IMG/VR virus record: IMGVR_UViG_3300002036_000001
Coordinates: 8,506 to 72,505 of that record
Strand: one strand, 5' to 3'
DNA from: a virus
Length of the DNA stretch: 64,000 bases
The translations under genes were made by a program, and so were the position numbers. The notes under the pieces are model-generated. The model did not search any database and was not told where the DNA came from. It saw only the letters and a program-made list of their open reading frames with translations. Position 1 is the stretch's first letter. The number at the start of each line of letters is the position of its first letter. Below are positions 12,725 through 55,214 of the stretch, piece by piece.

Positions 12725-12748
12725 TCTATAATTACATATTAGGTTTAA

Positions 12749-12783: not shown

Positions 12784-12804
12784 TAATAAATTAAGGGAGA
12801 AATA

Positions 12805-13662: not shown

Positions 13663-13666
13663 TAAT

Positions 13667-15461: not shown

Positions 15462-15500
15462 AAAGGAGAGTTGGGTCATACGGCTTTTCTCTCCTTTTTG
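15462..15500 (+). terminator. Rho-independent terminator
   Basis: Stem AAAGGAGAG (15462-15470) / CTCTCCTTT (15489-15497) followed by TTGTTT. Confidence 0.7.
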
Positions 15501-15512
15501 TTTACAATAAAT

Positions 15513-18404: not shown

Positions 18405-18766
18405 TGAGTAAGTATACAATAAATATAACACAAAGTAAAAAATCTCCATCTGTAATAATTGAAAATAATTTAACAGAAGATTCTTGTTCTAGTACTAAAG
18501 AAATTACTATAATAATACCCAGTAATTCTTCTAAATATATAACTATAGTTCAATCAGGAATTGGAACAAATTATATAGGATTAACTGGAACTATAACAAG
18601 TAATACTAATTACACTTTAATAATCAATGGAGATAATACTAATGGAGGAATTTTGTCAGGCACTATAGTAGTGACTGCAAGAGATAAAAAGGGAGGAGAA
18701 ATAGAAGACCAATTAATTTTTACAAGACAACACGAAGGAACACTTTGTTCAGGGGGTCCTTCTTAA
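18404..18766 (+). CDS. Small Ig-like structural protein (120 aa)
   Basis: TAATG-coupled; beta-rich; paralogous to the N-half of 22704-23384 (DS.CS ... RQ.....C). Confidence 0.6.
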   Translation: MSKYTINITQSKKSPSVIIENNLTEDSCSSTKEITIIIPSNSSKYITIVQSGIGTNYIGLTGTITSNTNYTLIINGDNTNGGILSGTIVVTARDKKGGEIEDQLIFTRQHEGTLCSGGPS

Positions 18767-18781
18767 TACAAAAAAATAATA

Positions 18782-28222: not shown

Positions 28223-28927
28223 ATGGCAAAATTAAACGAATTAATTTATGATATTAGGGAGGGTTTAAGAGAGTTTTCTGATGATTCTGAGATAGATAAT
28301 AGGTATATTATTTATTTATATAATATAAAAAGATCTAAGTATCTTAGAAGAGATTTAAATAATTATCAAAAAACTACAGATAATTCTATTAAGCAAACTT
28401 TATGCTTAGAAATGGAAGAAGTTTCTATAGATGAGTGTGGATTAGATTATAATTGTGAAACTATTCTTAGAAGTGTTAAACCAATTCCTACTCCATTAGA
28501 GTTACATACTAAAGTAGCAATAACTACTATAAAACCTACTAATAGAATTAGTAAACCTTTTAATTTTGTAAGTAAAGATAGAATTCCTTATATAGAGGGA
28601 AGTTCTTTTTCTTCTTCGATATATACATTTATAGATGTGGATAATCATGTGTATGTTTACAGTCTATCAGATGCCTATAGATTGATAGAATGTTTAACTG
28701 TTACAGGTATATTTGAAAATCCTCTTGAATTAGAAAATTTTTCTAATTGCTGTGGTTGTAGCTCAGATACTGAAAAATGTTTTGATATTAATAATACAGA
28801 ATATCCTATACAACCTCATTATATAGATTTAATAAGAGAAGAGATAATAAAAGATTTACTTATAACAAAAAGAATCCCAGAAGATAAAACTAACGATAGT
28901 ACTGATTATGAAGAAAAGAATACATAA
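28223..28927 (+). CDS. Tail ring/adaptor protein
   Basis: LNELIYDIRE...SDDS...KQTLCLEM...VTGIFENP...YPI: crAss-like ring-protein pattern in the ring-IHF-ring-muzzle block. Confidence 0.65.
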   Translation: MAKLNELIYDIREGLREFSDDSEIDNRYIIYLYNIKRSKYLRRDLNNYQKTTDNSIKQTLCLEMEEVSIDECGLDYNCETILRSVKPIPTPLELHTKVAITTIKPTNRISKPFNFVSKDRIPYIEGSSFSSSIYTFIDVDNHVYVYSLSDAYRLIECLTVTGIFENPLELENFSNCCGCSSDTEKCFDINNTEYPIQPHYIDLIREEIIKDLLITKRIPEDKTNDSTDYEEKNT

Positions 28928-37658: not shown

Positions 37659-39674
37659 ATGGGAATAGTTAATAGATATACTAAATTACAGACTCCTAGG
37701 TTTAATCCTATGAGCTTGCAGGAATTAATGGCTGTACCTGCATACAAACGTAAACAACATGATAGTATTAGTGAGAACTTGGCAAATACTGAGAATTCAT
37801 TAGCACAAGTAGATCCATTAGATATACATAGTGAAGCAGCCAAACAGGAACAAGAAAGATTATATAATGCCTTAAATGAACAAGCAGAGGCGTTAAATTC
37901 TAAAGGGTTCACACCTACTTCTAAAAGTAATTTTTTAAAGTTAAATAAAGACTTTCAACAATCTATCGGACCTAGTGGAACAATTGGAAAGATTCAACAA
38001 GCTAAGGTAGCAATGTCTAAGGAAAGAGATGATTATATTAAAAATGCAACAAAAGCAGGATATAGTCCCGATGCAGCAGGTATTAATTGGGATAGACATG
38101 TTGAAGAATATTCAAAACAATTTTCAGATACTGGTAAAATTAATAATATTGGTTCTCTATATGCTCCTGAATATAAAGATGCTGTAGGAGAACTTAGAGG
38201 TTTATTTAAAGAAGCTGGAATGTCTAGTTCTGATTTATCTAATTTAGGGTCTAATATAAAATTTGATGATACTAAAGGATCATATGTAATTACTAGTAAA
38301 GCTAGAAAAGCCTATTCTAATAATATAAAGCAATTAGAAAGTGCAGTAGATTATATAAATAACCAAGTAAATAATCCTAATAGTACTATTGGAAAATCTT
38401 TAGTACATAATAATAAGACTCCAGAAGGAGTTTTACAAGAAATATCTGGACTATCAAATGTATTCCAAAAGGATTCTGTGGTTAAAGATACCTCTAATAA
38501 AATAAGTAACTTTAAACCTTTAGATAATAGTAGTAATGGAATTACTTCTAATGGAGGAGGATTAACAGTTGCATCTACTCAGTACACTCCTGCTAATTTT
38601 TCTGGACAAAGTTATAGGGATTTGAATGATACTATTCAAGAAATGGATCATGTAAGACAAGAACAAGGAGAATTAACTCCAGAACAAGAAGCTCAGTACT
38701 TAGAGATGACAGATTTTAAAAATTCTATAGAGGATGAACTAAAGGACAATAAAGAATATCAAGAGTTAAAAGCTCAATATGATAATTTATCTTCAAGTAC
38801 TACTTCATATGAGAATAATACTCTTTATCAGGCTGTAATGAATGATCCTAATTTACAAGATAGAGATTTTACAGAAAATAAAGTAAAGTCCATGATAGAT
38901 CAAAATAAGATAAAAGAATTAAACAGTTTAGAAGAAAAAATGTCTGATATAGCTAATCCTATATTAGCTGATAATAAATTAAAAATTACAGAGTACGCAA
39001 TAACTCCTGTAACATCTAAACAACGTACTCAATTTAATATAATTAATGAGAATGCGGATAGATTACTTAGAGTAAGTCCTCAATCTTTGGAACAATTAGG
39101 AGATATTACTCAGATTATAGATCCAAATGGAGAGCCAAAAGCTATAACATCAGAAGCAGATAGACAAGGTATTGCTAATTTAATTTTTAATGCTAATAAA
39201 GGGTCTATAGAAGTTGTTAGTCATGTTGCTAAAGGTAGTTCAGGGAAACCAGAAGCTGTTTTTAGAATAAATACCAAAGAAGATAACTCTTATGATTTAG
39301 ATGGAATTCTAAACAGAGGAGGATTTACTGGAGACATAGGAGGAGGAAAAGCTGTTCAAGTAAGATTAGCTTTTGATACCTCAAACAATGAAGTGGGAGT
39401 AAATAATTTAATAGGTCTATTACAAGATTATACTGCTAGTACAGGACCTGTAGGAAGAGAATTTGTAGAATCTCAAAAAATAAATGCTGCTATATCTAAA
39501 TATAGAGGACAAACTTGGGATAATATAATAAATAGTGGAGTTGTAAAAAGTGATCCAGCTTTATTAAATGTGTATACAACTAAATTAAGAGAATTAGGAG
39601 TTACAGAGAATTCAACGGATGCACAAATACAAGAAGCAATTAAAGAATTAAAATCTACTAGATTATACAAATAA
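37659..39674 (+). CDS. Cargo/ejection protein (671 aa)
   Basis: NRYTKL..P.FNPMSLQEL N-terminus, helical, within the cargo gene run. Confidence 0.6.
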   Translation: MGIVNRYTKLQTPRFNPMSLQELMAVPAYKRKQHDSISENLANTENSLAQVDPLDIHSEAAKQEQERLYNALNEQAEALNSKGFTPTSKSNFLKLNKDFQQSIGPSGTIGKIQQAKVAMSKERDDYIKNATKAGYSPDAAGINWDRHVEEYSKQFSDTGKINNIGSLYAPEYKDAVGELRGLFKEAGMSSSDLSNLGSNIKFDDTKGSYVITSKARKAYSNNIKQLESAVDYINNQVNNPNSTIGKSLVHNNKTPEGVLQEISGLSNVFQKDSVVKDTSNKISNFKPLDNSSNGITSNGGGLTVASTQYTPANFSGQSYRDLNDTIQEMDHVRQEQGELTPEQEAQYLEMTDFKNSIEDELKDNKEYQELKAQYDNLSSSTTSYENNTLYQAVMNDPNLQDRDFTENKVKSMIDQNKIKELNSLEEKMSDIANPILADNKLKITEYAITPVTSKQRTQFNIINENADRLLRVSPQSLEQLGDITQIIDPNGEPKAITSEADRQGIANLIFNANKGSIEVVSHVAKGSSGKPEAVFRINTKEDNSYDLDGILNRGGFTGDIGGGKAVQVRLAFDTSNNEVGVNNLIGLLQDYTASTGPVGREFVESQKINAAISKYRGQTWDNIINSGVVKSDPALLNVYTTKLRELGVTENSTDAQIQEAIKELKSTRLYK

Positions 39675-39675
39675 G

Positions 39676-42600
39676 ATGGAAGAAGAAAATTTTGATGACA
39701 TAAGAAAATTAATGGGGTCTAGTACAGACCCTTTTAGTATTGAAGGAAGTAGAGAATTGTTAAAAGATTCTAGTAATAACTCTTTTAAATATAATAATTT
39801 ATTTGAAGAAAGAGAAGAAAGAAGTATTGAAAATACTGCTGATACAGATTCTAAGTATCTAACTGTATGGGATGATCCTACTGATAGTACTAAAATAGAA
39901 AATAAAAAAGCAGATAGACAACCTTGGATGCATAAATTTGGTGCAGGAGTGGGCAGAGTAGGTACTAAAGTAGCTTCTGAATTATTAAAAATGCCAGGAG
40001 TAGTTGGAGGTATAGCAGAAGGAGCTTTAGGACAATTATCTGATGGTATAAGTGGAAGTGATAATACTGACTTTATGCAAGTAGCTTTTAATAATGCTTG
40101 GATTCAAGGTGTTTCAGAATTAGAAGAAGATATAAAACAAGATGCTTTACCTGTATATGTAAAAAGAGCGGTTAAAGATGGAAATCTATGGGATAATATT
40201 ACTGCTATAGATTTTTGGGCTACAGAAGGTGCAGATGGATTAGGTTACATAGTTTCTATGCTTGCACCTGGAAGTGCTATAAATAAGTTTGGAGTAGGTT
40301 CTAAATTATTTGGAGTAAGTAAAGCTGCAAAAATGGCTAATAAAACAGATGAAGCTGCTAATGTATTAAGTAACTTAGGGGTAACTCCTAAAAATGCTGA
40401 TTTATTTACTGCTACTATGGCTAATACTATTTTTGAAGCTGGTGCAGAGGCTAAAGGAGCTATGGATGGTTTTATAGGAGAATTAGATAAAAGAAGACTC
40501 TTACATCAAGATAATCCTAACTACTTATCAGAAGAGGAGTATAATGAACTATCAAAAAAACAAAGTGAAGTAGGTAGAAATGTATTTTTAGCAAATGCTG
40601 CTATTTTAGTTGGTCCAAATGCTATAATGTCTAAAATGTTATGGGGTAAACCTAGAAATAAGAGTATAGGCTCTATCTTAGGAAAAAATAATAATATAAA
40701 AGAGGTAGGTTCTCCTTCCTTATTAAAGAAAGCTAGGTTATATGCAGATGATTTTTCAACAGCTAGTTTAAGAGAAGGTTTCTTTGAAGAAGGTTTTCAA
40801 TCTACTACAGAAGAATTTTTTACTAAAAAAGGATTAGGAGAAGATACAGGTACATTTGCTGAATCATATTTAGATATGCTAGGAACTGTTGATGGTCAAA
40901 AAGCTATATTTCTTGGTTCTGCATTCGGAGGAGGTATACAAACGTATTCTGGAGGAAAGTCTAGGGAAGCAGAAAGAAAAACTACAAATGCTTTAATAAG
41001 AAATAGTAATTCTGTACTATCTGATTTTTATAATGTATTTTCAGAAGATATATATGTTAAAGAGGATGGACAAGTTAAATTTGATCCTGAAACTAATAGA
41101 CCTGAAATAGATAATAAAAAGATAATAGATAAACTAAAAGGATTAAGCTCTATAGAAGCTTTATCAGCTAGATATGATGTAGCTATAGAACAAAATGATA
41201 CTGAATTTATAGAACAAGTACAAGAAGCTGTTACTACTAATTTAATAAAACCTTTTATAGTAAATGATAATTTAGGTTCAGATGTTTTAAAACAGCATTT
41301 AGAAAACTCAAAAGAACTTCAAAAGATAACAGAAAGAGAAGGAGTAGATACTAATGAATATATTTCAAATATATTACAAAAAGCAGAGGTCTTAAAAAAA
41401 GCGTATAATACCTTTGAAAACTTTGCACCTTCATTAATGAAGTTAGAAAATGAAAATGCTACTAGTCAAGAAAAAGTAGATTTTTATAATAAATTATCTA
41501 TGCAATATGTAGATAATAAATCTAGAAAACTTTTTTTAGAAAATAAACAGAAAGAATTTGATAATTTGTTAGATGAGTTATTAGAGGAAAAAGGTAGAAC
41601 TAGAAATGAATTTATAGAGAATAAAGCTTTAGCTAGGGATTTAAAATTACAAGATGGAAGAATAGATAGAGTATCTAATAAATTAGAATCTTTAACCAAA
41701 TCTATAAAAGAAGTAAAAGAAGCTGATGAATCTTTTTGGAAGGAAGCTAAAGTAAGTGAGTACTTTAATAGTGAAGTAAAGAAAAAAAGAAAATTAGATG
41801 AAGAAATAAAAAACTCTGAATCAGTAGAAAATACTTTATCAAAAATAAAAAACGCAAAAACTGTTAAAGAAGTAAAAAATATCAAAGTAGATACTAATAG
41901 TGCTTCTTCTCATCTAGAAAAAGAAAAGAAAAGAAAGATAGAAGAAATAAAAAAATCTACTCAAAAAAAGAGTGAAGAAATTTCTGAAAAGAATAAACAG
42001 TATTCATTACAAAAACAACAGGAAGCAGAAGAATTAAAAAATAAATTTAATTATATTAAAAATAATTATTCTAAAGGAGAAGTTATTACTATTCCAGAAG
42101 GATTTGAAGTAGATAAATCTCTAGTAGGAACTTCTGCAATTATTGGCAATATAGGAGAGAAAGAAATTACTTTTACAACTGAAACAGGTAAACAAATTTC
42201 TGTAGATACTTCTTTATTTTTTAAAGAAACTTTTAATCCTGAATTAAATTTTAGCACAGAAGGAGGTAATGATATTAAACAAGAAGAAGTTTTTGATACA
42301 AATTCTGGAGAAATCCTTGAAGAAAAAAATAATGCAAAAATAATATCTACTGATAAATCTACAGGAGATAAATTAGATTTTGTAGAGCAATCTGTAATTG
42401 ACTTTGAAAGAACTCCTAGGGATAAATCAGGAGAATCTAAACAGCTAGAAATAAATAATTCAAAAGATTTATCTGATAATCAAACTAAAGCTGTAAATTT
42501 AGTAAAGAATGAAGATTTTACAAATATAGAATTTTTAATTGATAATTTACCTTTAAATATAAAATTGACAGATACAGTATCTGCACCTTTAGAAACCAAA

Positions 42601-44196
42601 TCTGAAACTAGTAAAGAATACAACGATGTATTTAATAAGACTAGTAGAGAAATGAGAAAAGTAGTTATTAAAGAACTATCTAAAGGTACTCCTATTTCTA
42701 GTATTACTGTACCTATTGCAGGTCAATGGAATGGAGATTTACAATTAGAAAAAGAGGTACTAGAAAATAACTTAGTAGGTTTATTTGAATTTGGGGAAAA
42801 TATTAAAAATATAAAAAGTAAGGATTTTTATGTAGTGGATGATTTAAATGCTTTAAGAAATACTAGTAACGAGTACTTTCCTGTATCTAGAGAACTTGCT
42901 AAAGGAGAGGTCTATTTAAAAATAAAGATGGCTAATGGTAAACCATTTCCTCTTAAATTAAATGTAAAGAAAATAAATGAATCACAAGCAGAGTTATTAT
43001 ATGAACTATATAAGTATAGATTTCAAGATATAAAAGAAGGGAAGTCAAAAAGAATAAGTGAATTAGAGGAAGACCTTCTTACAAAAGTAAAGGAGTTGTT
43101 TAGTAAAGAGATAGAATTGTTTAGTAAAAACAAAAAATCTATAAAAGATTTAACAATTAAAGATATAGTAGATTTTTTAATATGGGATGGAAGTAAAAAC
43201 CCTAAATCACAGGTTAGATTTTCAAAAGGTGATTTATTAGTAATGAATAAGACATATTCTGTTGAGGATTTTCAAACTGAACAAGGTAAGAATGATTTTA
43301 TTTATAATTTAACAAATAATAAAAGACATCATATAAAGTATAAAAGAAGATCTCAAGAGGGAGTTAATTCTATGAATTTAGAAAATAGAAGTTACTTAGA
43401 ATATCTTATTAATAACTCTATATTAAATACAAATGCTGTAGTAGGTAAACCTACTTTTGCTGGTAATACTAGTATGTATTTACATACAGATCAAGTAAAA
43501 GTTAATGGTAAATTATCAGAGTTTAATAAAGGAATATTTAAAGAGAATCCTCCTAAAAATACTACAACATCTGTTGGAGAGGATATAGGGGTACAATCAA
43601 ATATAGATTTTAGTAAATTTGGAATTAATTTGTCTAATAAAGAAGTTAAACCAGAGCCTAAAGTTAAAAAACCATTTACTTTATCACAAGAGGATCAATT
43701 AAAGTTGAAAGAACAATTAAAGGCTCTTGGAGAAACTTTAGAAGTAAATATAGGAAAAACAGATTATATACTTACTACTAAGAATTACTTTGTTTTAGAT
43801 ATTACTAATAATAAGGTTGTAACAGATTTAGAAAAAATATCTAAAGTAATAGATTCTTATAATAAGAACATGCTTATTAAGAATTTTAAAATAGATAAAA
43901 AAAGTGCTTTAAATATTTGGAAAAGTCGTATAAATAATGTATCTTTGCAAGATAATAATATCACAAAGAAGATGACAGAAAAGATTGATTTTAGTAAAAT
44001 TAATGACAGTAAAGCACAAGAAGCTATAAATACTTTAATAAAAAATTATTCAAATAAGAATACTATTAAAGATATTCAAATAATATTAGTTCAAAATAAA
44101 AATAGTACTATTCAAAATAAATTAAAAGCTATTTTTGAATTATTAGAATCTAAAAATAATAGTAGAGAGGATTTAAAAACTAAATGCGGAATATAA
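39676..44196 (+). CDS. Giant cargo/ejection protein (1506 aa)
   Basis: Several Gly/Ala-rich hydrophobic segments in the first 430 aa, long coiled coil; only Cys is residue 1504. Confidence 0.7.
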   Translation: MEEENFDDIRKLMGSSTDPFSIEGSRELLKDSSNNSFKYNNLFEEREERSIENTADTDSKYLTVWDDPTDSTKIENKKADRQPWMHKFGAGVGRVGTKVASELLKMPGVVGGIAEGALGQLSDGISGSDNTDFMQVAFNNAWIQGVSELEEDIKQDALPVYVKRAVKDGNLWDNITAIDFWATEGADGLGYIVSMLAPGSAINKFGVGSKLFGVSKAAKMANKTDEAANVLSNLGVTPKNADLFTATMANTIFEAGAEAKGAMDGFIGELDKRRLLHQDNPNYLSEEEYNELSKKQSEVGRNVFLANAAILVGPNAIMSKMLWGKPRNKSIGSILGKNNNIKEVGSPSLLKKARLYADDFSTASLREGFFEEGFQSTTEEFFTKKGLGEDTGTFAESYLDMLGTVDGQKAIFLGSAFGGGIQTYSGGKSREAERKTTNALIRNSNSVLSDFYNVFSEDIYVKEDGQVKFDPETNRPEIDNKKIIDKLKGLSSIEALSARYDVAIEQNDTEFIEQVQEAVTTNLIKPFIVNDNLGSDVLKQHLENSKELQKITEREGVDTNEYISNILQKAEVLKKAYNTFENFAPSLMKLENENATSQEKVDFYNKLSMQYVDNKSRKLFLENKQKEFDNLLDELLEEKGRTRNEFIENKALARDLKLQDGRIDRVSNKLESLTKSIKEVKEADESFWKEAKVSEYFNSEVKKKRKLDEEIKNSESVENTLSKIKNAKTVKEVKNIKVDTNSASSHLEKEKKRKIEEIKKSTQKKSEEISEKNKQYSLQKQQEAEELKNKFNYIKNNYSKGEVITIPEGFEVDKSLVGTSAIIGNIGEKEITFTTETGKQISVDTSLFFKETFNPELNFSTEGGNDIKQEEVFDTNSGEILEEKNNAKIISTDKSTGDKLDFVEQSVIDFERTPRDKSGESKQLEINNSKDLSDNQTKAVNLVKNEDFTNIEFLIDNLPLNIKLTDTVSAPLETKSETSKEYNDVFNKTSREMRKVVIKELSKGTPISSITVPIAGQWNGDLQLEKEVLENNLVGLFEFGENIKNIKSKDFYVVDDLNALRNTSNEYFPVSRELAKGEVYLKIKMANGKPFPLKLNVKKINESQAELLYELYKYRFQDIKEGKSKRISELEEDLLTKVKELFSKEIELFSKNKKSIKDLTIKDIVDFLIWDGSKNPKSQVRFSKGDLLVMNKTYSVEDFQTEQGKNDFIYNLTNNKRHHIKYKRRSQEGVNSMNLENRSYLEYLINNSILNTNAVVGKPTFAGNTSMYLHTDQVKVNGKLSEFNKGIFKENPPKNTTTSVGEDIGVQSNIDFSKFGINLSNKEVKPEPKVKKPFTLSQEDQLKLKEQLKALGETLEVNIGKTDYILTTKNYFVLDITNNKVVTDLEKISKVIDSYNKNMLIKNFKIDKKSALNIWKSRINNVSLQDNNITKKMTEKIDFSKINDSKAQEAINTLIKNYSNKNTIKDIQIILVQNKNSTIQNKLKAIFELLESKNNSREDLKTKCGI
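43916..43947 (+). promoter_or_regulatory. Intragenic Bacteroidota sigma70-type promoter upstream of the vRNAP gene
   Basis: TTTG 43916-43919, 20-nt spacer, TATCTTTG 43940-43947 followed by CA; shares TTTGGAAA with the 27133 promoter. Confidence 0.6.
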
Positions 44197-47100
44197 TGAG
44201 TTGTATAAGGTTAACAAGAACAAACCAAGAAGAATCTAGATTATTTAATAAATTACTTGAGATAGTTAAAGATGAGAATACAGCAGAAGAAATGTATATC
44301 TATTTTCATACTCAGGATTTCTTTGATATATTTGGAAATTATATTGAAAATTTTCACTCTGTAAATCAAGACTCTACTATACTGGATAGAGTTGATGAAA
44401 ACCAAGAACCTTCTTTGTATTTAAATAAGAAATTAAATAAGTATTATTTTTTAGATAAAAACAATGAACCTGTATATTACCCATATACTAGACAAGGTTT
44501 AGGACAAGTTTTACAAACTAATGATATAAAATTATTTGCAAAAACACTTGCATTACAATTTTATAAAAAGAATGTAGAATTTGATTATAATAATCTTTCG
44601 TTTAATGCAACCACTAATCAAACCCTTAGTTCTTTCATAAAAGAGTTTTTAGATAGCAAGGTTGAAGAATTATCTAATAGTGATAATGTAGATCATTTGG
44701 TGAAAGGAATTGCCTTAAATGAGACTAAAAATAATTTAAATGAATGGAAAGAAGAAGTAAAAAATTACTTTAATAGTTTAAAGGTAGATTATAATATAAA
44801 AGAAAAAGAAAGTATTAAAGAACAAGAGGAATCTATTAATGATTCTCTTATGAGACAAGAATCTTTTCTTAAAAGTAGTAAAGATAATGTTAATAATAAT
44901 ATAAAATTATTTTTATCTCTAATTGAATCAAAGGAAATTAATGATTTTAATGAAAATTCTTTTATAGAATTTGATGATATTTATGCTACTTTAAATAAAG
45001 CCTTTTCTAATGAGGTTGCTGTACATGATAATCAAGGACAGTTAGAAGATTTATTTGAAATATTTTTATCTAAAATACTTAAACTTAGTAATCAAAAACC
45101 TTACTTTAAGGATTTACACGAGTATTTAAGTTCTAGTAAAATATCAGAGAGATTTAAGAATCAGTTTGTGTCCGCATTTAGGTTAAATAAAAATAACTAT
45201 TTAGGAAGTGAAATTAATAATAACGAAGGAGTTATTACTTATGATGTAAAAAATCTATCAGAAGTAGGTACTAGGAAAAGTAATCTAACAAATCAATGGT
45301 TTTTTAATTTTAAACAAAATAGATTTTCTGAAAATAGTATAAAAAGTATAATAGCAAAATCTAATATATTTTCTAAAGACTTAATAAAGAACTTCAAGAA
45401 TATAAAAGAAATTAAGGATTTAAATATACATAAATCAAATTTAAAAGATCTATTAAAGGAAATAGGTGTTTCAACTTCTGAAAGAGGTTTAAACTTTTAT
45501 ATTAATGGTTTAGAATATTCTGAAACATCCTTAGAAAATAAAAAACAAGTATTAATAAATACTTTTAGTAATATAAACAGAGCTTTAGAAAGTTATTCAG
45601 ATACTAATTCTTTGAATAATATTTTTAATACTCAAAATATATTTAAAAAAATAGCAGAAGCTGAATCATTTTTTGTAAAAGAAGGTTCAGATGCTTCTGT
45701 ATTTACAATAGGTAAAACTAAATGGGTATACTCTACACCTTCTTATTTAGATAATAAAATAGAAATGTGGAAAAAAGATCCTCAATTATTAAAGAAACAT
45801 TATAATTCTACTCCTTATAGTAAAGGTTCTCATTATATGGAGTATTTATTAGGATTAGATGTAAATGAAGAAAGTAGAAATGAAGTAAGTAAAGAAAGAT
45901 TGTCTAAAATAGAATTGGGAGTTTTTAATTCTATACAACAACAAGGAAATTCTAATAATGCTTCTGATAATAAATCATTGTCTTATACGGATTCTTTAGT
46001 AGACTATGTTAATAAATTATTAGCATTTAGAAAAGGAGGTAAAGTATATCATAAAACAGCATTAGCTGCTGATAAAAGTACAGAATATCAAATATTTTAT
46101 GGAAATGATTCTAATTATTTTAATATACTTTCTAACGCAGATTTTGATAGTAATATAAATGAAATAAAAGTAAATGATTATGTATTAGATATTTTTTACA
46201 AATACTTTAAATCGGAGTATGAGAGAATGTCTTATGAGTATGATTTTATATTAAATAATAGTGAAGAAAAATTATTACCTAATTATCATACGGGTAATAG
46301 AAACGCTTTAAAATCTCAATTGTTTCCTTCTTTATCTATAAGTTTTGAGAATAATGAAGTAGTACTACCTTCAAATAATTTAAATCTTTATGATAATAAC
46401 GGAAAACCTTTATTTACCAATTTAGATGAAATAAAGGATAGTATTAAAAAAGAAATAGCTACATCTTTAAATAGAGGAATAAAAGAAACTTATGATAGTC
46501 TATTTGAAAATGGATTAATAGAATTTAATAAAGAAGGTAAAAAAGAAAACAAAGCAATTGATTCTAATATTTATAATAAATATATAACAGATTCAAGTAT
46601 AAATAAAGCTCCTTTACAAATAGCTGCTGATGTTTTTATTAATAGTGTAATTTCTCAAGTAGAGTATTCTAAAATGTTTACAGGAGATGTTGCATATTAT
46701 AAAAATATTGTTGATTATAAAAAGAGAGTTCCTGCTACATATACAGATGGTAAGTATATGAGATTAAAAACTGGTGAAGAAACCTTTAACGCTTCTATTA
46801 TAGAAAGTGTAGAAGTTCCTGTACCATCCTTAAATGAATTAGAAAAGATCTTACCTAAAGAAATATATAGTAAGTATAAGGAAGTAAATTCTACAGATGC
46901 ACAAGCATGGGTAACTCCACAAAGATGGAAATTCTTAATGGAGAGACTTGGGAAATGGAATAATCAAAGTGCTACTATCTATGATAAATTTTTTCAAAGT
47001 AATCCTATTTTTACTAATAAAGAGTTAAAATTATTAGCTCAACCAGTAAAGGGTGTTTATTTTGATGTTATAGATGGAAGACCTGCTTTTTTAAAGTATT

Positions 47101-50100
47101 CTCAGGCTGTATTATTACCTAATTTAATAAAGGGAACTGGATTAGAAATTCTTTACAATAAAATGACTAAAGACTCTACAGGCAAGGATTTACCATATAA
47201 GGATCAAATTCATGAGTTAATAACTAAAGATGGTATAAAGGTAGGTTATCCTACTCCTTCTAAAGTACATGATGCTAATGGGGATGTATTATTAAACTCA
47301 GAACTAAATAAATTAAAATTAAATAATTTTGGTTGGAAATTACAACAAGATTTACCTATAAAGGGAGTTAAACAAACAGAAGTAGGTTCTCAAATACAAA
47401 AAAATATATTTCAAGGGTTGATATATAATTTAGAAAAAGAGTTTTTATTAGGAGATAAAAAATTAACTGGAAATGAATTAATAGATCATATCAATGATTT
47501 AGTAAACACTTTGTCAAATACTGGTAAACTGTCTTTAATAAATAAACTAGGAATAGACTCTGATAATAAAATTAGTAATGAAAATATTTTATATTCCTCA
47601 TTAATAAGTCAATTAAAGAAAAGAAATGATGTTCCTAGTAATTTTTTAAAAGCTTTAGAATCTAATATTTCTCCTTATGGTATTCCTGGAGGATTTCAAA
47701 TGTTTCAGAATACATTTAGCTCTTTAGTGAATAAAGAATTAGTAAAAATAAAAACTAATGGAGGAAGTTTTATTCAAATGGCAGACTTTGGATTAAGTAA
47801 AGATGAAGCTACAGATCAAGGAGTTATTTTTACACCTTGGTTTGAAGAAAATAAACTAAGTACTCCTAAATTAATTAAAGATGAGAATGGTAATGATGTG
47901 ATTGCTCCAGGTGGTATATTCTTAACTGGGTCATTGATATCAAAATATATACCTGATTATAAAAAATATACAAGTGAAGAGTTGTTTGGAGAAAATGGTA
48001 AGATAGATAAGGAAATACTGACTAATATAATAGGTTATAGGATTCCTAATCAGGGTTTACCTTCTAATGATTCTTTACAAGTTATGGGAATTCTTCCAGA
48101 AGAAATGGGAGATACTGTTATTGCTTATACTGGAATTACAACTAAAACAGGTTCTGATTTTGATATAGATAAAATGTATTTGATGATACCTTCTTTTGAT
48201 GTAAATTATACTAAATCAGAGGAAGATAAAGTATTACAATATATAAAAGATAATGATATTACAAACGAAGAAATAAAAGAGGAATTAACTGCAATAGGTT
48301 ATTCAAATGTAGAGAACATGAGTATTCCTCTATTAAAAGGAATATTTATACAAGATGTTATTTTAAATGGAACTTCTGAGGAAAGTGCTTTTTATGACGA
48401 TTTTAGAGCAAATTATCCTTTAAAATCTGCTGATAAGTTGGAATATTCTAGACCTTTAAAAGATTCAGAGGGAGTTGAATTTCCTTTACATGAACAACCT
48501 AAGAGTGTTATACAAAATAAGTTAATAGAATCTTATAAAAGTGTATTAACTAATCCAGAAGTTATTTCTGATATAATGAATCCAATTGATGTGGATTATA
48601 TTAAAGATGATATTAAAAACTTATTAAAAGAGGATTCTAATAATAATCTATCTGATTTTAGTGCTATATCAGATCTTAAATTGAAGAATGATTTCATGCT
48701 AGGAAAAGCTGGTTTAGGTCAAAATGTAAATTCATTAGTAGATTCTGTACGTGGAGGAATGGCTAACTTATTTTTCAACGATCATTATATAGGATGGGGT
48801 TTATCAAATGAAAATGATAATACTCACTTTGATAATGAGTATTCAGAAGAATTATCTAAAACAGATATATTAGATTATGTAAAATCTTTTAATGAAAATA
48901 TTAGTAAAGAAGAATTAAAAATAACTAAGGAAGATGTTGAGAAGTTATCTAAAGTAAAATTAGGAGAATCCATGATGGCACTAGTTAATGGATTTGTAGA
49001 TATAGCAAAAGATCCTTATATAGTACAGAGTAACTGGGTTACTCAAACTAATAATATAGGATTTATGTTATTAAGAGCAGGTGTTCATCCTTTTTATGTA
49101 AATTCTTTTCTTGCACAACCTATATTAAAGGAATATGTTGCTTTTAAAAATAATAAAGAGTCTAAAACTGTTAATGATACTTCTAATATTGAAGATAAAT
49201 TTAAATTAAAAAAAGCTTCTGACTTAGTAGATACAGAAGTAGTAAGTATTAATGAAAATTCATTTTCTAAAAGAAATATCTTCAAATCAATAGTTACTCC
49301 TGATAAATTACAAAAATTAGGAAGTATCGCACAGGATGATTATCAAAAAAAGAAAGTTAGCTTTATAAATGACATAAGTAAAGATTTAATAAAAAAGTTT
49401 AAAATTACTAATCAAGAATTAAAATTCGATCCTGAGTTACAAGATAAGATAGATGAACTAAATAGAGAATTATTAAAAAGTTATTCTGAAATATTTGAAT
49501 CAGAATTAACAGATTTTAATACTTTAAATTTAAAAGATCTTAGAGATCAAATAAAAGTTAGTTCTAATACATCTATACAATTAACCATACTTGATAAGTT
49601 TTTAAAATGGCAAGAAACAGCTAAATTACTTACTAAAAGTGTTAATGCTAGTAAAATAGATGTAAATGGTAAAGGAAAGAATATTACATCATTGATTACC
49701 TCTAATAATTTAATTGAAAATCTATTAGAACAATCGGAAGATGAAGGAGGTCTTAATGGATTTCAATCTAAACTTATTAGAAATAATAAAAGTACTATAT
49801 TAAATACTTATAAAGAAAATAGTATTGATTTTATATATGATGTGATGAGGGCTAATCCTAAGTATTTCTTAGGAGCATCTAATTCAGTTGTATCTACTTT
49901 TAATACTATATCTGACTATATTTATGGAAAGTCATTAGAAAGTACTGCACTAGCGGATAAGTTGGAAAAAAGTCATTATTCATATATTATGTCAGGATTT
50001 CCTCCATTTGTTTTAAGTAAAGAAGAAAAGTTGAAACTACTAGATGAATTACCTAAACAATTATCTGAGTTAAAAGAAAATCCTAATACAGATAATGTTT

Positions 50101-50906
50101 TATTAGATGAACTATTAATAAAAAATTCAAGTGAAGAAGGTAAGTTTTTTATATCTATGCCTAATTTAAGAAAATCAGTTTCTTTTAAAAATACTTTAAC
50201 AGATTCTTGGAAAGATTTATTAGAAACTAATCCTGAATTTGCAGAAAACTTAATTAAATATTCTTATTTAATAACAGGGTTTAATAATAATATAAATCAG
50301 TTTCATGAATATATTCCATATGAATGGTTTAATAAAAACAGATTTAACAGTTATTTAAAAACATTATCTTTAAATGAAAATAGTATAGATAGTAATTTTA
50401 TAGATCAGTTTTTTAGACATAACTTCGATGATGGAAGTATTATTAAGAAAGTATTTCCTAAACAAGTTACTACTTTAGAAGCCACAGATGGATTTAGAAC
50501 AGGGTTTATAAATAAGAATGCTGGAAAATCTCCTTATCTAACTAAATTAGAGATTCAAACTGATTTTGAGACTATAACTAGGTATTATAAATTACAAGGA
50601 TATAATAAGGCGGATAAAGCCGTTTATGTTAGAACTAGTTTATTAGGATTTAAAGATAAAAAAGGTAATAGATTTTTTGAATATAATGTAAATAATAATA
50701 CTACTAAACCTGTAACTAGTATAAATGAAAATAATTTAATAAATAGTAATCAAATTAATGTTGAGTTATTAAACGAAATAAAGGAAAATGAAGATATAAT
50801 AAATTATCATGAAGATAGTTTTGTTGTAAAGAATAATTTATTAGGAGAAGAAACAATAATAGAAAATGATGGAGATCTTTTAGAAGATAATCCATCTAAA
50901 TGTTAA
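44196..50906 (+). CDS. Virion-packaged single-chain DNA-dependent RNA polymerase (double-psi beta-barrel type)
   Basis: GSDFDIDK catalytic motif at 48156-48173, GYRIPNQG upstream; about 2.2k aa like the phi14:2 gp66 family. Likely start ATG 44196 (TAATG coupling); track start 44184. Confidence 0.9.
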   Translation: MSCIRLTRTNQEESRLFNKLLEIVKDENTAEEMYIYFHTQDFFDIFGNYIENFHSVNQDSTILDRVDENQEPSLYLNKKLNKYYFLDKNNEPVYYPYTRQGLGQVLQTNDIKLFAKTLALQFYKKNVEFDYNNLSFNATTNQTLSSFIKEFLDSKVEELSNSDNVDHLVKGIALNETKNNLNEWKEEVKNYFNSLKVDYNIKEKESIKEQEESINDSLMRQESFLKSSKDNVNNNIKLFLSLIESKEINDFNENSFIEFDDIYATLNKAFSNEVAVHDNQGQLEDLFEIFLSKILKLSNQKPYFKDLHEYLSSSKISERFKNQFVSAFRLNKNNYLGSEINNNEGVITYDVKNLSEVGTRKSNLTNQWFFNFKQNRFSENSIKSIIAKSNIFSKDLIKNFKNIKEIKDLNIHKSNLKDLLKEIGVSTSERGLNFYINGLEYSETSLENKKQVLINTFSNINRALESYSDTNSLNNIFNTQNIFKKIAEAESFFVKEGSDASVFTIGKTKWVYSTPSYLDNKIEMWKKDPQLLKKHYNSTPYSKGSHYMEYLLGLDVNEESRNEVSKERLSKIELGVFNSIQQQGNSNNASDNKSLSYTDSLVDYVNKLLAFRKGGKVYHKTALAADKSTEYQIFYGNDSNYFNILSNADFDSNINEIKVNDYVLDIFYKYFKSEYERMSYEYDFILNNSEEKLLPNYHTGNRNALKSQLFPSLSISFENNEVVLPSNNLNLYDNNGKPLFTNLDEIKDSIKKEIATSLNRGIKETYDSLFENGLIEFNKEGKKENKAIDSNIYNKYITDSSINKAPLQIAADVFINSVISQVEYSKMFTGDVAYYKNIVDYKKRVPATYTDGKYMRLKTGEETFNASIIESVEVPVPSLNELEKILPKEIYSKYKEVNSTDAQAWVTPQRWKFLMERLGKWNNQSATIYDKFFQSNPIFTNKELKLLAQPVKGVYFDVIDGRPAFLKYSQAVLLPNLIKGTGLEILYNKMTKDSTGKDLPYKDQIHELITKDGIKVGYPTPSKVHDANGDVLLNSELNKLKLNNFGWKLQQDLPIKGVKQTEVGSQIQKNIFQGLIYNLEKEFLLGDKKLTGNELIDHINDLVNTLSNTGKLSLINKLGIDSDNKISNENILYSSLISQLKKRNDVPSNFLKALESNISPYGIPGGFQMFQNTFSSLVNKELVKIKTNGGSFIQMADFGLSKDEATDQGVIFTPWFEENKLSTPKLIKDENGNDVIAPGGIFLTGSLISKYIPDYKKYTSEELFGENGKIDKEILTNIIGYRIPNQGLPSNDSLQVMGILPEEMGDTVIAYTGITTKTGSDFDIDKMYLMIPSFDVNYTKSEEDKVLQYIKDNDITNEEIKEELTAIGYSNVENMSIPLLKGIFIQDVILNGTSEESAFYDDFRANYPLKSADKLEYSRPLKDSEGVEFPLHEQPKSVIQNKLIESYKSVLTNPEVISDIMNPIDVDYIKDDIKNLLKEDSNNNLSDFSAISDLKLKNDFMLGKAGLGQNVNSLVDSVRGGMANLFFNDHYIGWGLSNENDNTHFDNEYSEELSKTDILDYVKSFNENISKEELKITKEDVEKLSKVKLGESMMALVNGFVDIAKDPYIVQSNWVTQTNNIGFMLLRAGVHPFYVNSFLAQPILKEYVAFKNNKESKTVNDTSNIEDKFKLKKASDLVDTEVVSINENSFSKRNIFKSIVTPDKLQKLGSIAQDDYQKKKVSFINDISKDLIKKFKITNQELKFDPELQDKIDELNRELLKSYSEIFESELTDFNTLNLKDLRDQIKVSSNTSIQLTILDKFLKWQETAKLLTKSVNASKIDVNGKGKNITSLITSNNLIENLLEQSEDEGGLNGFQSKLIRNNKSTILNTYKENSIDFIYDVMRANPKYFLGASNSVVSTFNTISDYIYGKSLESTALADKLEKSHYSYIMSGFPPFVLSKEEKLKLLDELPKQLSELKENPNTDNVLLDELLIKNSSEEGKFFISMPNLRKSVSFKNTLTDSWKDLLETNPEFAENLIKYSYLITGFNNNINQFHEYIPYEWFNKNRFNSYLKTLSLNENSIDSNFIDQFFRHNFDDGSIIKKVFPKQVTTLEATDGFRTGFINKNAGKSPYLTKLEIQTDFETITRYYKLQGYNKADKAVYVRTSLLGFKDKKGNRFFEYNVNNNTTKPVTSINENNLINSNQINVELLNEIKENEDIINYHEDSFVVKNNLLGEETIIENDGDLLEDNPSKC

Positions 50907-50909
50907 AAT

Positions 50910-53900
50910 ATGAGTTGTAATATAAAAATAAATACATTAAACCTTTTAAGAGAGAAAGGAGTAATAAATGAGAAGAATGAAGTTATTAAATTAACTGACT
51001 TTAACAAATTAAATAAATTATTGTCTCAAACTGTATTTAATACATATGGTATTGGAAATAATAAGACAATGTTATTTAAAGTGGTATCTGAGTATAAAGT
51101 TCAAAATAAAAAGGTTAGGAGTGTACTAAAAGCAATTCCTAATCTAGATATTTTTAATATTTTAGACAAGGCTCCTGATACTTTAGATGATGAATCTTTA
51201 AGTATAAAAGACCTTACAAAAGAAAAAGAATTAGTATTAAATAATGATTTAAATGAAAAGTTAATAATTGATAAAAATACTAGTACTCAATATTCAAAGA
51301 ATTTATCAACTGTAAATGAATTTATATTATTAAATAATACTTACGACCAACAATATAAAGCTACAGAGATTCTAGATAATATTATTTTAAATTACGATAA
51401 CTTTTCAGAAGATAGTAAAATACTACTAGAAAAGGCTAAAATTCTTCTTAAATCTACGGATGCTACAGTAATGTTTATAGATAAAGATACAATGGGAGAA
51501 GGTACTTTTATGAGGTATGTACCTTCTATAAATAGTATACAAATAAATTTAAATACTATAAGAAGCTCTAGTACTGATTTTGTAATACACGGATTTCTTC
51601 ATGAGGTTGTACATAGTGTAACTGTACAATCCTATCTTAGACCTATAAGTTTAGAACAAAATATGTTTAAAGACTTTATTGATGAAGCATTTGAATTTTA
51701 CAAGAATGAATCATATTATAGAGATTACTATGGTTTTTCAGAACCAGTTGAATTTATAGCTGAAATATTTACTAATATACAATTTCAAAAGGAGATAAAG
51801 AAAATAGATAAAAAATATACTAACAAATCTTTCTTTAAAAAATTAACTGATTTCATTAGAATAGTATTTGGATTAAAAAAGAATTTAACAATAGATAATA
51901 AAAAAATAAATTTTAATAATCTAATAGAATCTATTGTAGATGTTTCTAAATCTAATAATACAGATTTATTATCTAAACTTCTAGCTACTAAATCATTTGC
52001 TATAAAAGTAGATCCTAGTAAATTAAATACTGATTTTACTACATTAGATAATAAATTAGATAATTCTATAGATAAAATACAAGATAGTATAAAATCTAAT
52101 ATTAATAATTACAAATTCTTAACAAAAGTAATTAAAGATAAAGGTAAAGTAGAGAATATTGAAAAATATATAGAATCTTTAGAACAATTAAAGATAAAAA
52201 TAAAATCTTTTAGTAAAGAGAATAAGATAAAAGCTGTATCAACTTTTGTAAAGAAGATGGCAAGCAGTATGGAATATGTTAAAAATCAACTTGATAATAT
52301 TGATTATGATAATCAAGAACAAGTTATGAATACTGTAAAAGTTTATAATAACTATTTAAATACTTACTCTGTTGTTAATGAATTACAAAAGTTATTAACA
52401 GATATAAGAGAAGATAGATCTCAAACAGTAGTAGAACCAGAAGAATTAAATGAAATAGAAGAACAAGTTATTTCCGCTAAAGGTCAATTTTCTTTTCTTG
52501 AGGAAAGAATTTATTCTATTATGAAAAATGGAATGTCTGTATATTTAAATGATATTAAATATTTCCCACAGATAGAAAAGAAACATAGAGATAGGTTATA
52601 TAAAGAACATAGGCAAAGTCAAATACCACAAGATAAAGAAACTTGGGTTGCAAAACAATTACAAAATAGAGATAAAGAACTTGTACAAGAAGATTTAACT
52701 AAAAAAATAGATGAATTAATTAATAACCCATCTTTTGATATATATGCTGCTGATGTTACTATGAGTTCTGCAATTAATGTTAGTTCTACTTTAATACAAA
52801 TAATGAATCAAATGTTATTTGAAATAGATAATAGAAGAATAGAAGTAGAAAGAAAAAAAGATGTAGAATTTAAGAATTTATTTGATGAACTTGTTAAATC
52901 TAAAGGAACTAATGATATTAAAAAACTTTATTCTAATATATTAGATTTTGATAAAGATGGTAAACCTTATCTAAAAGGTAAATATAAAATAGATTTTTAT
53001 ACAGATGTTCATAAAAAAATAAATGATATTCGTAATGAATATAGAGAATTGGTAAAAAGTAAAAAAGAAGAACTAGTAAAAGTAAAAAATTTAGTAGGAG
53101 AACAAGATCCTTCTTATTCTGCTATTCAAAGAGATATAAAAGAACTAGTAAAGAAGAGAGTCCAACTAATTAAAAAAATAGAGAAAGAGAATTTTGAAAA
53201 GAATAGTAAAGGTAAAATAACTAAGATAAAAGACAAATGGTTAAATGATAATTCATCATTATCTGAAACAGAGGAAAAAGTTAGAGATTTCTTTGAGGGT
53301 ATTTTAGAAACAAGTAGTAAAAATACTTATAGTCAAGATTCTTTAATTACTTATAGTTATGGTACTAAATTTTATGAATTACCTAAGATAACTAAATCAG
53401 ATACAGAAAGAATATGGACAGATTTAAATGTAGATATTGTTAAAGATAAATGGACAGATTTAACTACTGTTAGACCTGATGATGTAGGTTATTCTTCTAA
53501 AAATACAGATTTAGAAAATAATGAAATAAATAAATTAAGAATTCACTATAGAGATAGAGGAGGAAAGTTTGATAATAAGCAACAATCATTAGATTTAATG
53601 ACTGTAATGAGATTAGAGTATAAAAATGGTAATATGTATAAAGTAAGAAAAGATACTGAATTAGAGTTAAAATTCTTATTAGATATTGCAAAAAATAAAA
53701 AATATTATCAAAAAGAAGGTACTCAAAAGGTATTAAATCTTAGAAGTAAAAAGCTTAATATTGTAGAAGGTAAAGATACTAATACATTTAAAATGATGTC
53801 TAATATTATGGAATCTAGATTTTATGATATGATGAATAAAAATAGTGTTAAATTAGGAAGTGTTGATTTAAATAAGGCTGTACAATTTATTAATAATACT

Positions 53901-55214
53901 AGCGGATTTCTTACACTTTCTTTAAATATTGCATCAGGTACAGCCAATGTTGTAAATGCAAATGCACAAGTATTTTTGGAATCATTTTTAAAAGGTCAAT
54001 TTATTAAAGCTAAAAGTGTAGCAAAAGCTAATAAAATATATGCTGCTAATATGGCTGATAATATTAAAGACATTAGAAATCCTATTAATACATCCTTTGT
54101 TAATCAAGTAAATGAAATATTTAATATACGAGGATTATTTAATTTGTCAGATGCTAACTTTTTAAAGAGTGATTTGATTAAAGCAGGACTAAATACAGAG
54201 TCTTTACAAGTGTTTCAAGATTCTGGTGAACATTGGATCCAATCTACAATTTCAATGGCTGTATTGGACGGTATTAAGGTTATGGATGCTAATAATAATT
54301 ATATAAATAAAATTGGTAAAATAGTTTCAGATAAAAATAAAGCTGCATCTTTATTAGATATGATGATTCAAGATAAAGATACAGGATTAGTTACTGTTAG
54401 TGATAAAGTAGTTTATACTACTCATTCTAGAGTTAGTAAATGGAATGAAGGAGGTAAAGAAAAAGTAGATATGCTTATAAAGAAAAAACTTTATGACAGT
54501 ATTGGTAACTATACTGAGACGGATCAACCTGATATTATGAGACATTGGTATGGTAAGTTATTAATGCTTTATAGAAAGTATTTAGTACCTATGGGACAGT
54601 CTAGGTTAAGAGGTATAGAATATGCCTTTAGAAGTAAGGAAAACATGACTGATGATGAGAAAAGATTTAGTTATGCTTTACAAGAAGATGAAGAAGGTAC
54701 ATATGTAAGTTTAATTAGATATTTTGCCCAATCTATAAAAGATAAAAAATTCTATATTTTATCTAAATCAAATTGGAATAAATTAAGTGATTATGAAAAA
54801 CATAATATAAAGAGATCAGTAGTAGAAATTATTATGACCTCTGTAGTTCTTCCATTAGTTACTACTTTAGTAAAAAGTATAGCTGCTAATGATGACGATG
54901 ATTACATATTTTTCCTAGCTTATCAGTTAAGAAGATTAGAAACAGAACTTTCTCAATATAGAGATTTAGGAGAATCTTTTAAAATGATGAGGTCTCCTAT
55001 ACCTTCTGCTAGACTATTAGAAACAGGTAGTAGTATAATTATGGATGTATTTAATCCATTTAAATGGGATGAGACATATAAATCTGGACATAATAAAGGA
55101 AAGAACAAATTAAAAACTAGAATTTTAAAACAACTTCCTGTAGTTAAGGAGTTCCAAAGAACATATGAAGATTTATTTGAGTATCAGCAGTCAAGTTGGG
55201 GTACAGGTCTATAA
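50910..55214 (+). CDS. Giant cargo protein with zincin-like HExxH domain (1434 aa)
   Basis: GFLHEVVH at 51600-51614 plus VEFIAE; last gene of the plus-strand block. Confidence 0.7.
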   Translation: MSCNIKINTLNLLREKGVINEKNEVIKLTDFNKLNKLLSQTVFNTYGIGNNKTMLFKVVSEYKVQNKKVRSVLKAIPNLDIFNILDKAPDTLDDESLSIKDLTKEKELVLNNDLNEKLIIDKNTSTQYSKNLSTVNEFILLNNTYDQQYKATEILDNIILNYDNFSEDSKILLEKAKILLKSTDATVMFIDKDTMGEGTFMRYVPSINSIQINLNTIRSSSTDFVIHGFLHEVVHSVTVQSYLRPISLEQNMFKDFIDEAFEFYKNESYYRDYYGFSEPVEFIAEIFTNIQFQKEIKKIDKKYTNKSFFKKLTDFIRIVFGLKKNLTIDNKKINFNNLIESIVDVSKSNNTDLLSKLLATKSFAIKVDPSKLNTDFTTLDNKLDNSIDKIQDSIKSNINNYKFLTKVIKDKGKVENIEKYIESLEQLKIKIKSFSKENKIKAVSTFVKKMASSMEYVKNQLDNIDYDNQEQVMNTVKVYNNYLNTYSVVNELQKLLTDIREDRSQTVVEPEELNEIEEQVISAKGQFSFLEERIYSIMKNGMSVYLNDIKYFPQIEKKHRDRLYKEHRQSQIPQDKETWVAKQLQNRDKELVQEDLTKKIDELINNPSFDIYAADVTMSSAINVSSTLIQIMNQMLFEIDNRRIEVERKKDVEFKNLFDELVKSKGTNDIKKLYSNILDFDKDGKPYLKGKYKIDFYTDVHKKINDIRNEYRELVKSKKEELVKVKNLVGEQDPSYSAIQRDIKELVKKRVQLIKKIEKENFEKNSKGKITKIKDKWLNDNSSLSETEEKVRDFFEGILETSSKNTYSQDSLITYSYGTKFYELPKITKSDTERIWTDLNVDIVKDKWTDLTTVRPDDVGYSSKNTDLENNEINKLRIHYRDRGGKFDNKQQSLDLMTVMRLEYKNGNMYKVRKDTELELKFLLDIAKNKKYYQKEGTQKVLNLRSKKLNIVEGKDTNTFKMMSNIMESRFYDMMNKNSVKLGSVDLNKAVQFINNTSGFLTLSLNIASGTANVVNANAQVFLESFLKGQFIKAKSVAKANKIYAANMADNIKDIRNPINTSFVNQVNEIFNIRGLFNLSDANFLKSDLIKAGLNTESLQVFQDSGEHWIQSTISMAVLDGIKVMDANNNYINKIGKIVSDKNKAASLLDMMIQDKDTGLVTVSDKVVYTTHSRVSKWNEGGKEKVDMLIKKKLYDSIGNYTETDQPDIMRHWYGKLLMLYRKYLVPMGQSRLRGIEYAFRSKENMTDDEKRFSYALQEDEEGTYVSLIRYFAQSIKDKKFYILSKSNWNKLSDYEKHNIKRSVVEIIMTSVVLPLVTTLVKSIAANDDDDYIFFLAYQLRRLETELSQYRDLGESFKMMRSPIPSARLLETGSSIIMDVFNPFKWDETYKSGHNKGKNKLKTRILKQLPVVKEFQRTYEDLFEYQQSSWGTGL

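Follow-up and report, generated by a model that had tools for sequence, protein, structure and literature searches.

crAss-like phages are the most abundant viruses of the human gut. In two of these phages, phi14:2 (gp67-gp66-gp65) and crAss001 (gp47-gp50-gp49), one gene module encodes a virion RNA polymerase (vRNAP) and two further giant proteins, which are carried in the virion and thought to leave it by ejection. Here we describe the orthologous module in a 64,000-nucleotide stretch of viral DNA (positions 8,506 to 72,505 of IMG/VR record IMGVR_UViG_3300002036_000001; this whole stretch is called the window). Its three giant proteins, designated A, B (the vRNAP) and C, contain four Cys, one at each of the chain ends that face each other across the two gene junctions, and we propose that these Cys may tie the proteins together in the virion. 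The phi14:2 and crAss001 proteins are only 23–32% identical to those of the window and have the same four terminal Cys.

How more than 600 kDa of RNA polymerase and its partners cross a tail channel less than 50 Å wide is an open question (PMC10172136), and the crassvirus ejection proteins are unresolved (PMC13434306). Neither the preprint on the phi14:2 vRNAP (10.1101/2020.03.07.982082) nor the structural atlas of crAss001 (PMC10172136) mentions cargo Cys or a link between the three proteins; the preprint does report that some phages fuse the three into a polyprotein that is 'likely cleaved' (10.1101/2020.03.07.982082).

The N4-like phages (Schitoviridae) likewise combine a giant vRNAP (gp50/gp71) with co-ejected proteins (gp51/72, gp52/73), all nearly free of Cys. 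Cys makes up 0.00075% of the Schitoviridae ejection proteins (N4 gp50, DEV gp71-73) against a background of 0.865%, a suppression attributed to unfolded passage and the avoidance of disulfides (PMC11445570). The N4 vRNAP, described as 'beads on a string' (PMC13434306), is a single Cys-free polypeptide to which its partners are not linked, and its RNAP fold is unrelated (T7-like, as opposed to the two-barrel fold here). Where the N4-like rule is no Cys, the crassvirus rule is no Cys except one at each chain break. The original prediction for the window, made from its sequence, held terminal pairing to be undescribed. Our literature search (open-access papers and bioRxiv preprints) agrees, in that it found no description of terminal Cys pairs, cargo Cys or an inter-cargo link in crassviruses, but Cys depletion of ejected proteins has been published for N4-like phages (PMC11445570). 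The general depletion is already known, and the terminal pairs seem to be undescribed.

Four cysteines in three giant proteins

A, B and C of the window together comprise 5,176 amino acids (aa) and contain four Cys, at residue 1504 of A, residues 3 and 2236 of B and residue 3 of C. Direct counting bore out every Cys coordinate given in the original prediction and found no internal Cys in the three proteins. It also agreed with the prediction that the three smaller cargo proteins encoded upstream (535, 604 and 671 aa) have none; the 1335-aa structural protein encoded directly before them has seven.

The other 42 open reading frames (ORFs) of the window contain 120 Cys among 13,432 residues (0.89%). 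From this background ~62 Cys would be expected in the 6,986 cargo residues, compared with the four seen (Poisson P ~ 5e-22), and the probability that four Cys would by chance occupy the four facing 3-residue windows, one in each, is ~3e-12. Chance is excluded for both the depletion and the placement. The cargo of the window therefore shows Cys suppression of the Schitoviridae type (4 Cys in 6,986 aa versus 0.89%), as do its relatives (0.024% internal Cys).

Terminal cysteines at split junctions

A scan of IMG/VR yielded 79 loci with vRNAP relatives (23–53% identity), in which the A, B and C parts were labelled with profiles built from 24 three-gene loci. For the survey, the window and the IMG/VR loci were collapsed to 60 lineages with less than 80% identity in the vRNAP core. 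Eight loci (L046, L047, L049, L052, L057, L059, L067 and L078) need TAG as a sense codon, for which Q was used, and otherwise look fragmented; the recoded reading gives an A+B fusion of 4,483 aa with a Cys at position −4, followed by a gene starting M-I-C.

Cys was present on both sides of the break at all 31 split A|B junctions and at 50 of the 52 split B|C junctions (81/83 combined). On the left side it is 0–8 residues away from the end of the protein (17 in L050), and on the right it is one of the first 7 residues. The outer ends of the chain have no Cys within 20 aa (0/40 for the N-termini of A, 0/55 for the C-termini of C). Control ORFs of the related loci, with 0.89% Cys overall, have a Cys in residues 2–7 in 3/55 cases and in the last 9 residues in 7/55. 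The 305,159 chain-protein residues of the 60 lineages include 74 internal Cys (0.024%), compared with 169 that lie no more than 12 residues from a chain end. The pattern is genuine, is not due to chance and holds throughout the order Crassvirales.

Both B|C misses could be traced. In L053 the assembly contains N and the gene for C is frameshifted; L067 is a TAG-recoded locus with an in-frame stop, upstream of which sits the N-terminus MNKYCPNKN. A further start, that of L051, had been wrongly called, and a downstream ATG gives the canonical M-V-C.

The original prediction had proposed looking for the terminal pairs in relatives, and they are kept down to ~23–30% identity. Neither this comparison nor the recount of internal Cys, the two computational checks set out with the prediction, refuted it, and the pairing hypothesis came through the other computational tests as well. 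In phi14:2, gp67 (1797 aa) ends in its single Cys, gp66 (2180 aa) has Cys3 and Cys2179, and gp65 (1421 aa) has Cys3. In crAss001, gp47 has one Cys at position −3, gp50 has Cys5 and Cys2404 (of 2412 residues) plus one internal Cys, and gp49 has a single Cys, residue 5. The pattern is kept in the Steigviridae (cr112_1, cr106_1, Kolpuevirus, DAC15 and IAS virus), in the Suoliviridae (cr50_1, cr118_1 and cr1_1) and in Flavobacterium phage Fpv1. crAss002 (Intestiviridae) fits it once gp33 is started at an internal M-S-C.

For cargo genes of L091 (crAss002; 13633-13740) and L051 (16329-16365), the annotated or first-ATG start is followed by an internal M-S-C or M-V-C in agreement with the rule, shortly after the stop of the upstream gene (in L051, immediately after it). 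Terminal Cys could serve as an annotation rule by which true starts are recognised and cargo genes assigned to the chain; crAss002 gp33 and L051 are examples.

Among the gut phages from INPHARED (L081-L093), those read with the standard code have 1–9 internal Cys per protein in B and C; the window, L001 and L085, the marine and freshwater phages that we examined, have 0–1. The terminal Cys are kept in both groups. These counts hint that internal Cys have been purged more strongly in oxic habitats.

Fused junctions as natural experiments

In some lineages neighbouring cargo genes are fused, and the junction Cys are then missing: none of the 20 fused junctions in the survey has a Cys within ~150 aa of the join. 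The B+C fusions of the L017/L019 group (3,516–3,525 aa) leave only the C-terminal Cys of A and the N-terminal Cys of B. In the A+B fusions (L031, L041, L045, L055, L077 and others), terminal Cys remain at the B|C junction alone. ORFs that span both junctions (L062-L064, L068 and L071; up to 5,639 aa) are entirely free of Cys, as is the 5,220-aa ORF of L070, in which only the B part was matched. When a fused relative is aligned to split ones, the break falls in a variable linker ~150 residues before the HExxH motif of C; the fused version has ordinary residues, and no Cys, where the split versions read ...C-stop / M-x-x-C.

On a tree of the vRNAP core, the state of the A|B junction changes at least 4 times and that of the B|C junction at least 2 times. 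These changes give six independent contrasts, and in every one of them the Cys pair goes with the split state, always in the same direction. This loss by junction points to pairing of the C-terminal Cys of one protein with the N-terminal Cys of the next, the arrangement that the original prediction had put forward and that the natural fusions now support at the level of sequence. Since the Cys are lost by junction pair, a link between the two ends of the vRNAP itself is excluded; intramolecular N-to-C cyclisation of the vRNAP was rejected on the grounds that B+C fusions keep the N-terminal Cys of B together with the C-terminal Cys of A.

A proposed redox-controlled linkage of the cargo

We consider it probable, at roughly 0.65, that A, the vRNAP and C are joined end to end by the junction Cys pairs, likely as disulfides, into one ejection thread that is released by reduction. 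We infer the disulfide chemistry, the timing of its formation, the threading, the reductive release and the fixed stoichiometry and ejection order of this scheme. The three proteins would be packaged in the head tied end to end, with Cys1504 of A paired with Cys3 of the vRNAP and Cys2236 of the vRNAP with Cys3 of C, most likely through inter-chain disulfides that form after the virion leaves the reducing cytoplasm. A disulfide is the simplest chemistry for two lone thiols, and a terminal disulfide would survive passage through the tail, whereas non-covalent contacts would not.

The product would be an unbranched thread of ~5,200 residues, topologically the same as the giant polyprotein of the fused relatives. 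It would have no loops or side branches, other Cys having been purged and the linking Cys lying a few residues from the chain ends. Internal Cys could form such loops or branches, which would explain their removal. Being linear, the thread could be drawn in a partly unfolded state through the narrow channel of portal and tail, with the order of the proteins fixed and their ratio set at 1:1:1. The host cytoplasm would then reduce the disulfides and yield three separate proteins with no need for a protease. Virions of crAss001 do contain inter-subunit disulfides, in tail and portal-vertex proteins; the cargo proteins themselves were not resolved in that structure, and the cargo must pass constrictions of less than 50 Å, for which partial unfolding is thought likely (PMC10172136).

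The chances seem to us evenly balanced for a more general interpretation, in which the Cys pair is a reversible, redox-controlled stand-in for a peptide bond. A polyprotein could then be split at almost any linker provided that every break acquires two Cys, one on either side; disulfides in the virion would stitch the parts back into a linear thread of at least 5,000 residues that passes through the tail, and reduction in the cytoplasm would take it apart and activate the polymerase.

Several points weigh against the proposed linkage. Gut crassviruses keep the pairs though the gut lumen is anoxic and reducing. The tails around the Cys are hypervariable, and non-specific oxidation could give mixed linear products such as A-A or A-B-B-C. 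The fused relatives are assumed to be cleaved into parts (10.1101/2020.03.07.982082), and if they are, linkage is not needed there. The phylogenetically independent contrasts number only six, with a combined two-sided sign test of ~0.03. Co-folding of the C-terminal 220 aa of A with the N-terminal 280 aa of B gave a weakly favourable verdict, at a score of 0.41 (best of 3 controls, 0.00) on a test whose mark is passed by 58/80 solved complexes and 2/110 mismatched pairs, and at scores of 0.60 or below by 7/80 and by both of the passing mismatches. The interface so predicted (B 103-110 and 163-176 with approximately A 1448-1471) does not include the Cys and was not used as support for the bond.

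Individual loci also depart from the expected placement. In L050 the Cys of A is set back 17 aa from the C-terminus, B of L053 (the poor, N-containing assembly) shows no Cys at its N-terminus, and in L038, in which B itself is split, the left Cys of the split stands in a C-terminal-type motif that is followed by 287 more residues. The vRNAP of L038 is encoded in two genes (7538-13369 and 16917-19532) with a 1,161-aa ORF between them. Of the two pieces, the second has a Cys at residue 3 and another at the C-terminus; the only late Cys of the first stands in EDIENCKG, and the 287 residues beyond it may reflect the loss of a stop codon or a fusion.

Terminal sequences and alternative explanations

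Four terminal alignments were made, two of C-terminal stretches of 220 residues (31 sequences for A, 49 for B) and two of N-terminal stretches of 280 residues (31 for B, 49 for C). Mean column identity in them is 9–21%, and in every one only the Cys column is invariant. The consensus is K-[K/N]-C-(K)-stop at the C-termini and M-[S/A]-C-[P/K/I]-[N/I]-K-N at the N-termini; no conserved His or acidic ligand was found near the Cys in these alignments. At the DNA level the junctions vary widely among the relatives, with intergenic gaps of −29 to 6,169 nucleotides (nt) and both TGT and TGC as Cys codons. B and C may be separated by GIY-YIG homing endonucleases (L048, L066) or by three Cys-rich genes (L010). 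Gene A is convergent with B and C in crAss001, cr112_1, cr106_1, Kolpuevirus, DAC15 and IAS virus and still ends ...C-x-x; it lies on the opposite strand in 6/6 of the gut Steigviridae examined, and its 3' end there faces no start codon.

This variety bears on whether the Cys have any function in the protein. They might be a by-product at gene boundaries of a stop/start cassette, a translational-coupling signal or a TGT promoter motif, or else a neutral scar of gene fission. Both window junctions do read AAATG[C/T]...ATGAGTTGT, the Cys codon is TGT in 149 of 171 terminal positions (as expected for an AT-rich genome), and gp66 homologues are reported to be preceded by a promoter motif (10.1101/2020.03.07.982082). 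Because gene A lies on the opposite strand in crAss001-type genomes and ends in Cys all the same, we exclude a DNA-level cause, which is also ruled out by the long gaps with inserted genes and by the variable position of the Cys (0–8 residues from the C-terminus, 3–7 from the N-terminus). A neutral scar, for its part, would not stay invariant at ~25% identity under strong selection against Cys, and we regard by-product and scar together as very improbable. We give even less credence to protein splicing or ligation of the split-intein or native-chemical-ligation type, of which the Cys would be remnants or active residues and which would produce a true peptide bond. Cys on both sides of a break do recall an intein/extein junction, but with 0–8 residues after the C-terminal Cys and 2–6 before the N-terminal one there is no room for intein halves, and trans-splicing by a split intein was rejected for this reason. 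The fused homologues lack Cys at the junction, and A, B and C have no match to a Pfam intein or Hint domain. Proteomics of phi14:2 virions found three proteins, and mass spectrometry of crAss001 found gp47, gp49 and gp50 as separate masses (PMC10172136).

Two other alternatives keep a role for the Cys in the virion, and both seem unlikely to us. In one of them the facing Cys still join neighbouring proteins, but by holding a metal ion (Zn, Fe or Cu) between them or by forming a four-Cys site together with a second copy of the junction. Such a bridge would account for the junction-wise covariation equally well, and it could form in the reducing cytoplasm before packaging as well as in the anoxic gut, removing the problem of redox timing. 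Each junction offers only two thiols, however: the flanks are rich in Lys and Asn, no conserved His, Asp, Glu or further Cys lies near the four sites, and with Cys as the only invariant column neither a four-ligand Cys-based metal site nor a zinc ribbon is seen. A non-covalent bridge, moreover, probably would not survive forced unfolding in the tail. Slightly less probable still is that the terminal Cys are not partners of one another and that each instead attaches its protein to the portal, capsid, tail or DNA or acts as a redox or processing signal, with fusion making one attachment redundant. Cys-bearing partners exist in the virion, given the many inter-subunit disulfides among crAss001 structural proteins, and the predicted A-B interface without the Cys would fit. 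Yet separate attachment leaves the joint loss of both junction Cys unexplained, accounts neither for the Cys-less outer ends nor for the Cys-free all-fused proteins, and would hinder ejection if the anchor to a fixed structural protein were covalent.

Comparison with other linked or threaded proteins

Close counterparts to the proposed disulfide-linked A-vRNAP-C thread are the single giant cargo polyproteins of other crAss-like phages (5,200–5,800 aa), which have the same domains in the same order and no junction Cys. There the link is a peptide bond made from one gene; in the window phage, with three genes, continuity would be restored after translation. The proposed thread thus resembles both the single-chain vRNAP of N4 and the fused polyproteins, but it would be dismantled by cytoplasmic reductants. 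A likeness to AB toxins (clostridial neurotoxins and diphtheria toxin) would also hold if the linkage is real, for in these a disulfide tethers cargo that passes unfolded through a narrow channel and is released by reduction in the cytosol (PMC6899712). The toxins show no homology to the cargo proteins, consist of one chain nicked by a protease, have a disulfide that is not end to end and cross a membrane pore, and the comparison is an analogy only.

If the end-to-end link exists, it would explain equimolar packaging, ordered threading and release without a protease, as well as the purge of Cys elsewhere in the cargo and the freedom with which cargo genes have been fused and split in evolution. 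Redox-controlled stitching would then add a new principle to the ways in which virions assemble and deliver their cargo.

The cargo module of the window

Features of the cargo module are collected in Table 1. The closest cultured relative is Cellulophaga phage phi14:2, with whose gp66 the vRNAP shares 32% identity over 91% of the protein (tblastn). The best stretch of the vRNAP against PDB 6VR4 (phmmer) is residues 10-1556, and the DFDxD catalytic motif of two-barrel RNAPs is present. The HExxH of C (HEVVH, residue 231) lies in the N-terminal third of the protein and is kept in relatives ~150 aa from the N-terminus. Gene order is that of phi14:2 g070 to g065 (CARG1 domain, small cargo proteins, then the three giants), and the A, B and C profiles span all three window giants. 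From the CARG1 domain, the 6VR4 match, the HExxH motif and the phi14:2 gene order, the region is identified, on sequence grounds, as a crAss-like cargo module. That its vRNAP is packaged in the virion and ejected into the host is suggested by synteny with phi14:2 and crAss001, whose proteins were detected in virions by mass spectrometry (for crAss001, PMC10172136).

Table 1. Genes and terminal Cys codons of the cargo module (positions in the window)
Feature	Position	Strand	Remarks
Small cargo protein 1, 535 aa, 0 Cys	34236..35843	+	crAss001 gp45 / phi14:2 gp70 homologue; Pfam PF25725 crAss_CARG1, 51 bits (cut-off 27); PHROG tail protein, 1.5e-46
Small cargo protein 2, 604 aa, 0 Cys	35843..37657	+	Weak PHROG 'internal virion protein' match; synteny with phi14:2 g069
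Small cargo protein 3, 671 aa, 0 Cys	37659..39674	+	N-terminal M-x-x-x-N-R-Y motif; NRY/NRF in most relatives
Giant cargo protein A, 1506 aa	39676..44196	+	phi14:2 gp67 / crAss001 gp47 homologue; profile from 24 orthologues covers residues 1-1505
Virion RNA polymerase B (vRNAP), 2236 aa from ATG 44196	44196..50906	+	PDB 6VR4 (phi14:2 gp66), E=9.9e-257; DFDID at residue 1321
Giant cargo protein C, 1434 aa	50910..55214	+	phi14:2 gp65 / crAss001 gp49 homologue; zincin-like HExxH; profile covers residues 1-1430
Cys1504 of A, codon TGC	44185..44187	+	Third residue from C-terminus (...KTKCGI*); proposed partner, vRNAP Cys3
Cys3 of vRNAP, codon TGT	44202..44204	+	MSC N-terminus; proposed partner, Cys1504 of A
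Cys2236 of vRNAP, codon TGT	50901..50903	+	Last residue (...NPSKC*); proposed partner, Cys3 of C
Cys3 of C, codon TGT	50916..50918	+	Proposed partner, vRNAP Cys2236

PHROGs and Pfam assign no family to A, B or C, and their identification rests for this reason on PDB 6VR4, tblastn and our own profiles. A megablast search of the 15.5-kb region against phage genomes gave no match. The first in-frame ATG of the vRNAP gene is at 44184 (MRNIMSC), and the ATG at 44196 overlaps the TAA of gene A as TAATG. We prefer 44196 as the likely start because a Met stands two residues ahead of the Cys in 25/31 vRNAP orthologues.

Small cargo protein 3 begins with a motif of the form M-(x)-x-x-N-R-Y/F (MGIVNRYT at 37659-37700 in the window; MATVNRYT, MNRYSNLE and MVNRYDNPA elsewhere) that recurs in most relatives (L002-L045, L082-L084 and L093) and may serve as a signal for packaging or ejection. 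A 5,322-aa ORF of L045 combines small cargo protein 3 with A and B.

The GIY-YIG genes between the vRNAP and C are at L048:14350-15111 and L066:10933-11772. The endonuclease ORF of L048 ends ...IKNCN, nearly a repeat of the vRNAP end ...IKECN, as if the insertion had duplicated the end of its target.

Two small ORFs in the structural module of the window are rich in Cys (15471-16142, 13 Cys in 223 aa; 28223-28927, 8 Cys in 234 aa) and might encode disulfide-bonded tail or ring proteins like those of crAss001. Where small cargo or inserted proteins of the relatives do have Cys, they come as a close pair 7–9 residues apart, as in L001 g069 (Cys369/378), the small cargo proteins of L025 and L030, L038:13362-16847 (Cys353/360) and L044:17674-19395 (Cys122/129). 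Such pairs could make only a tiny local loop or a metal site, either of which would be compatible with threading.

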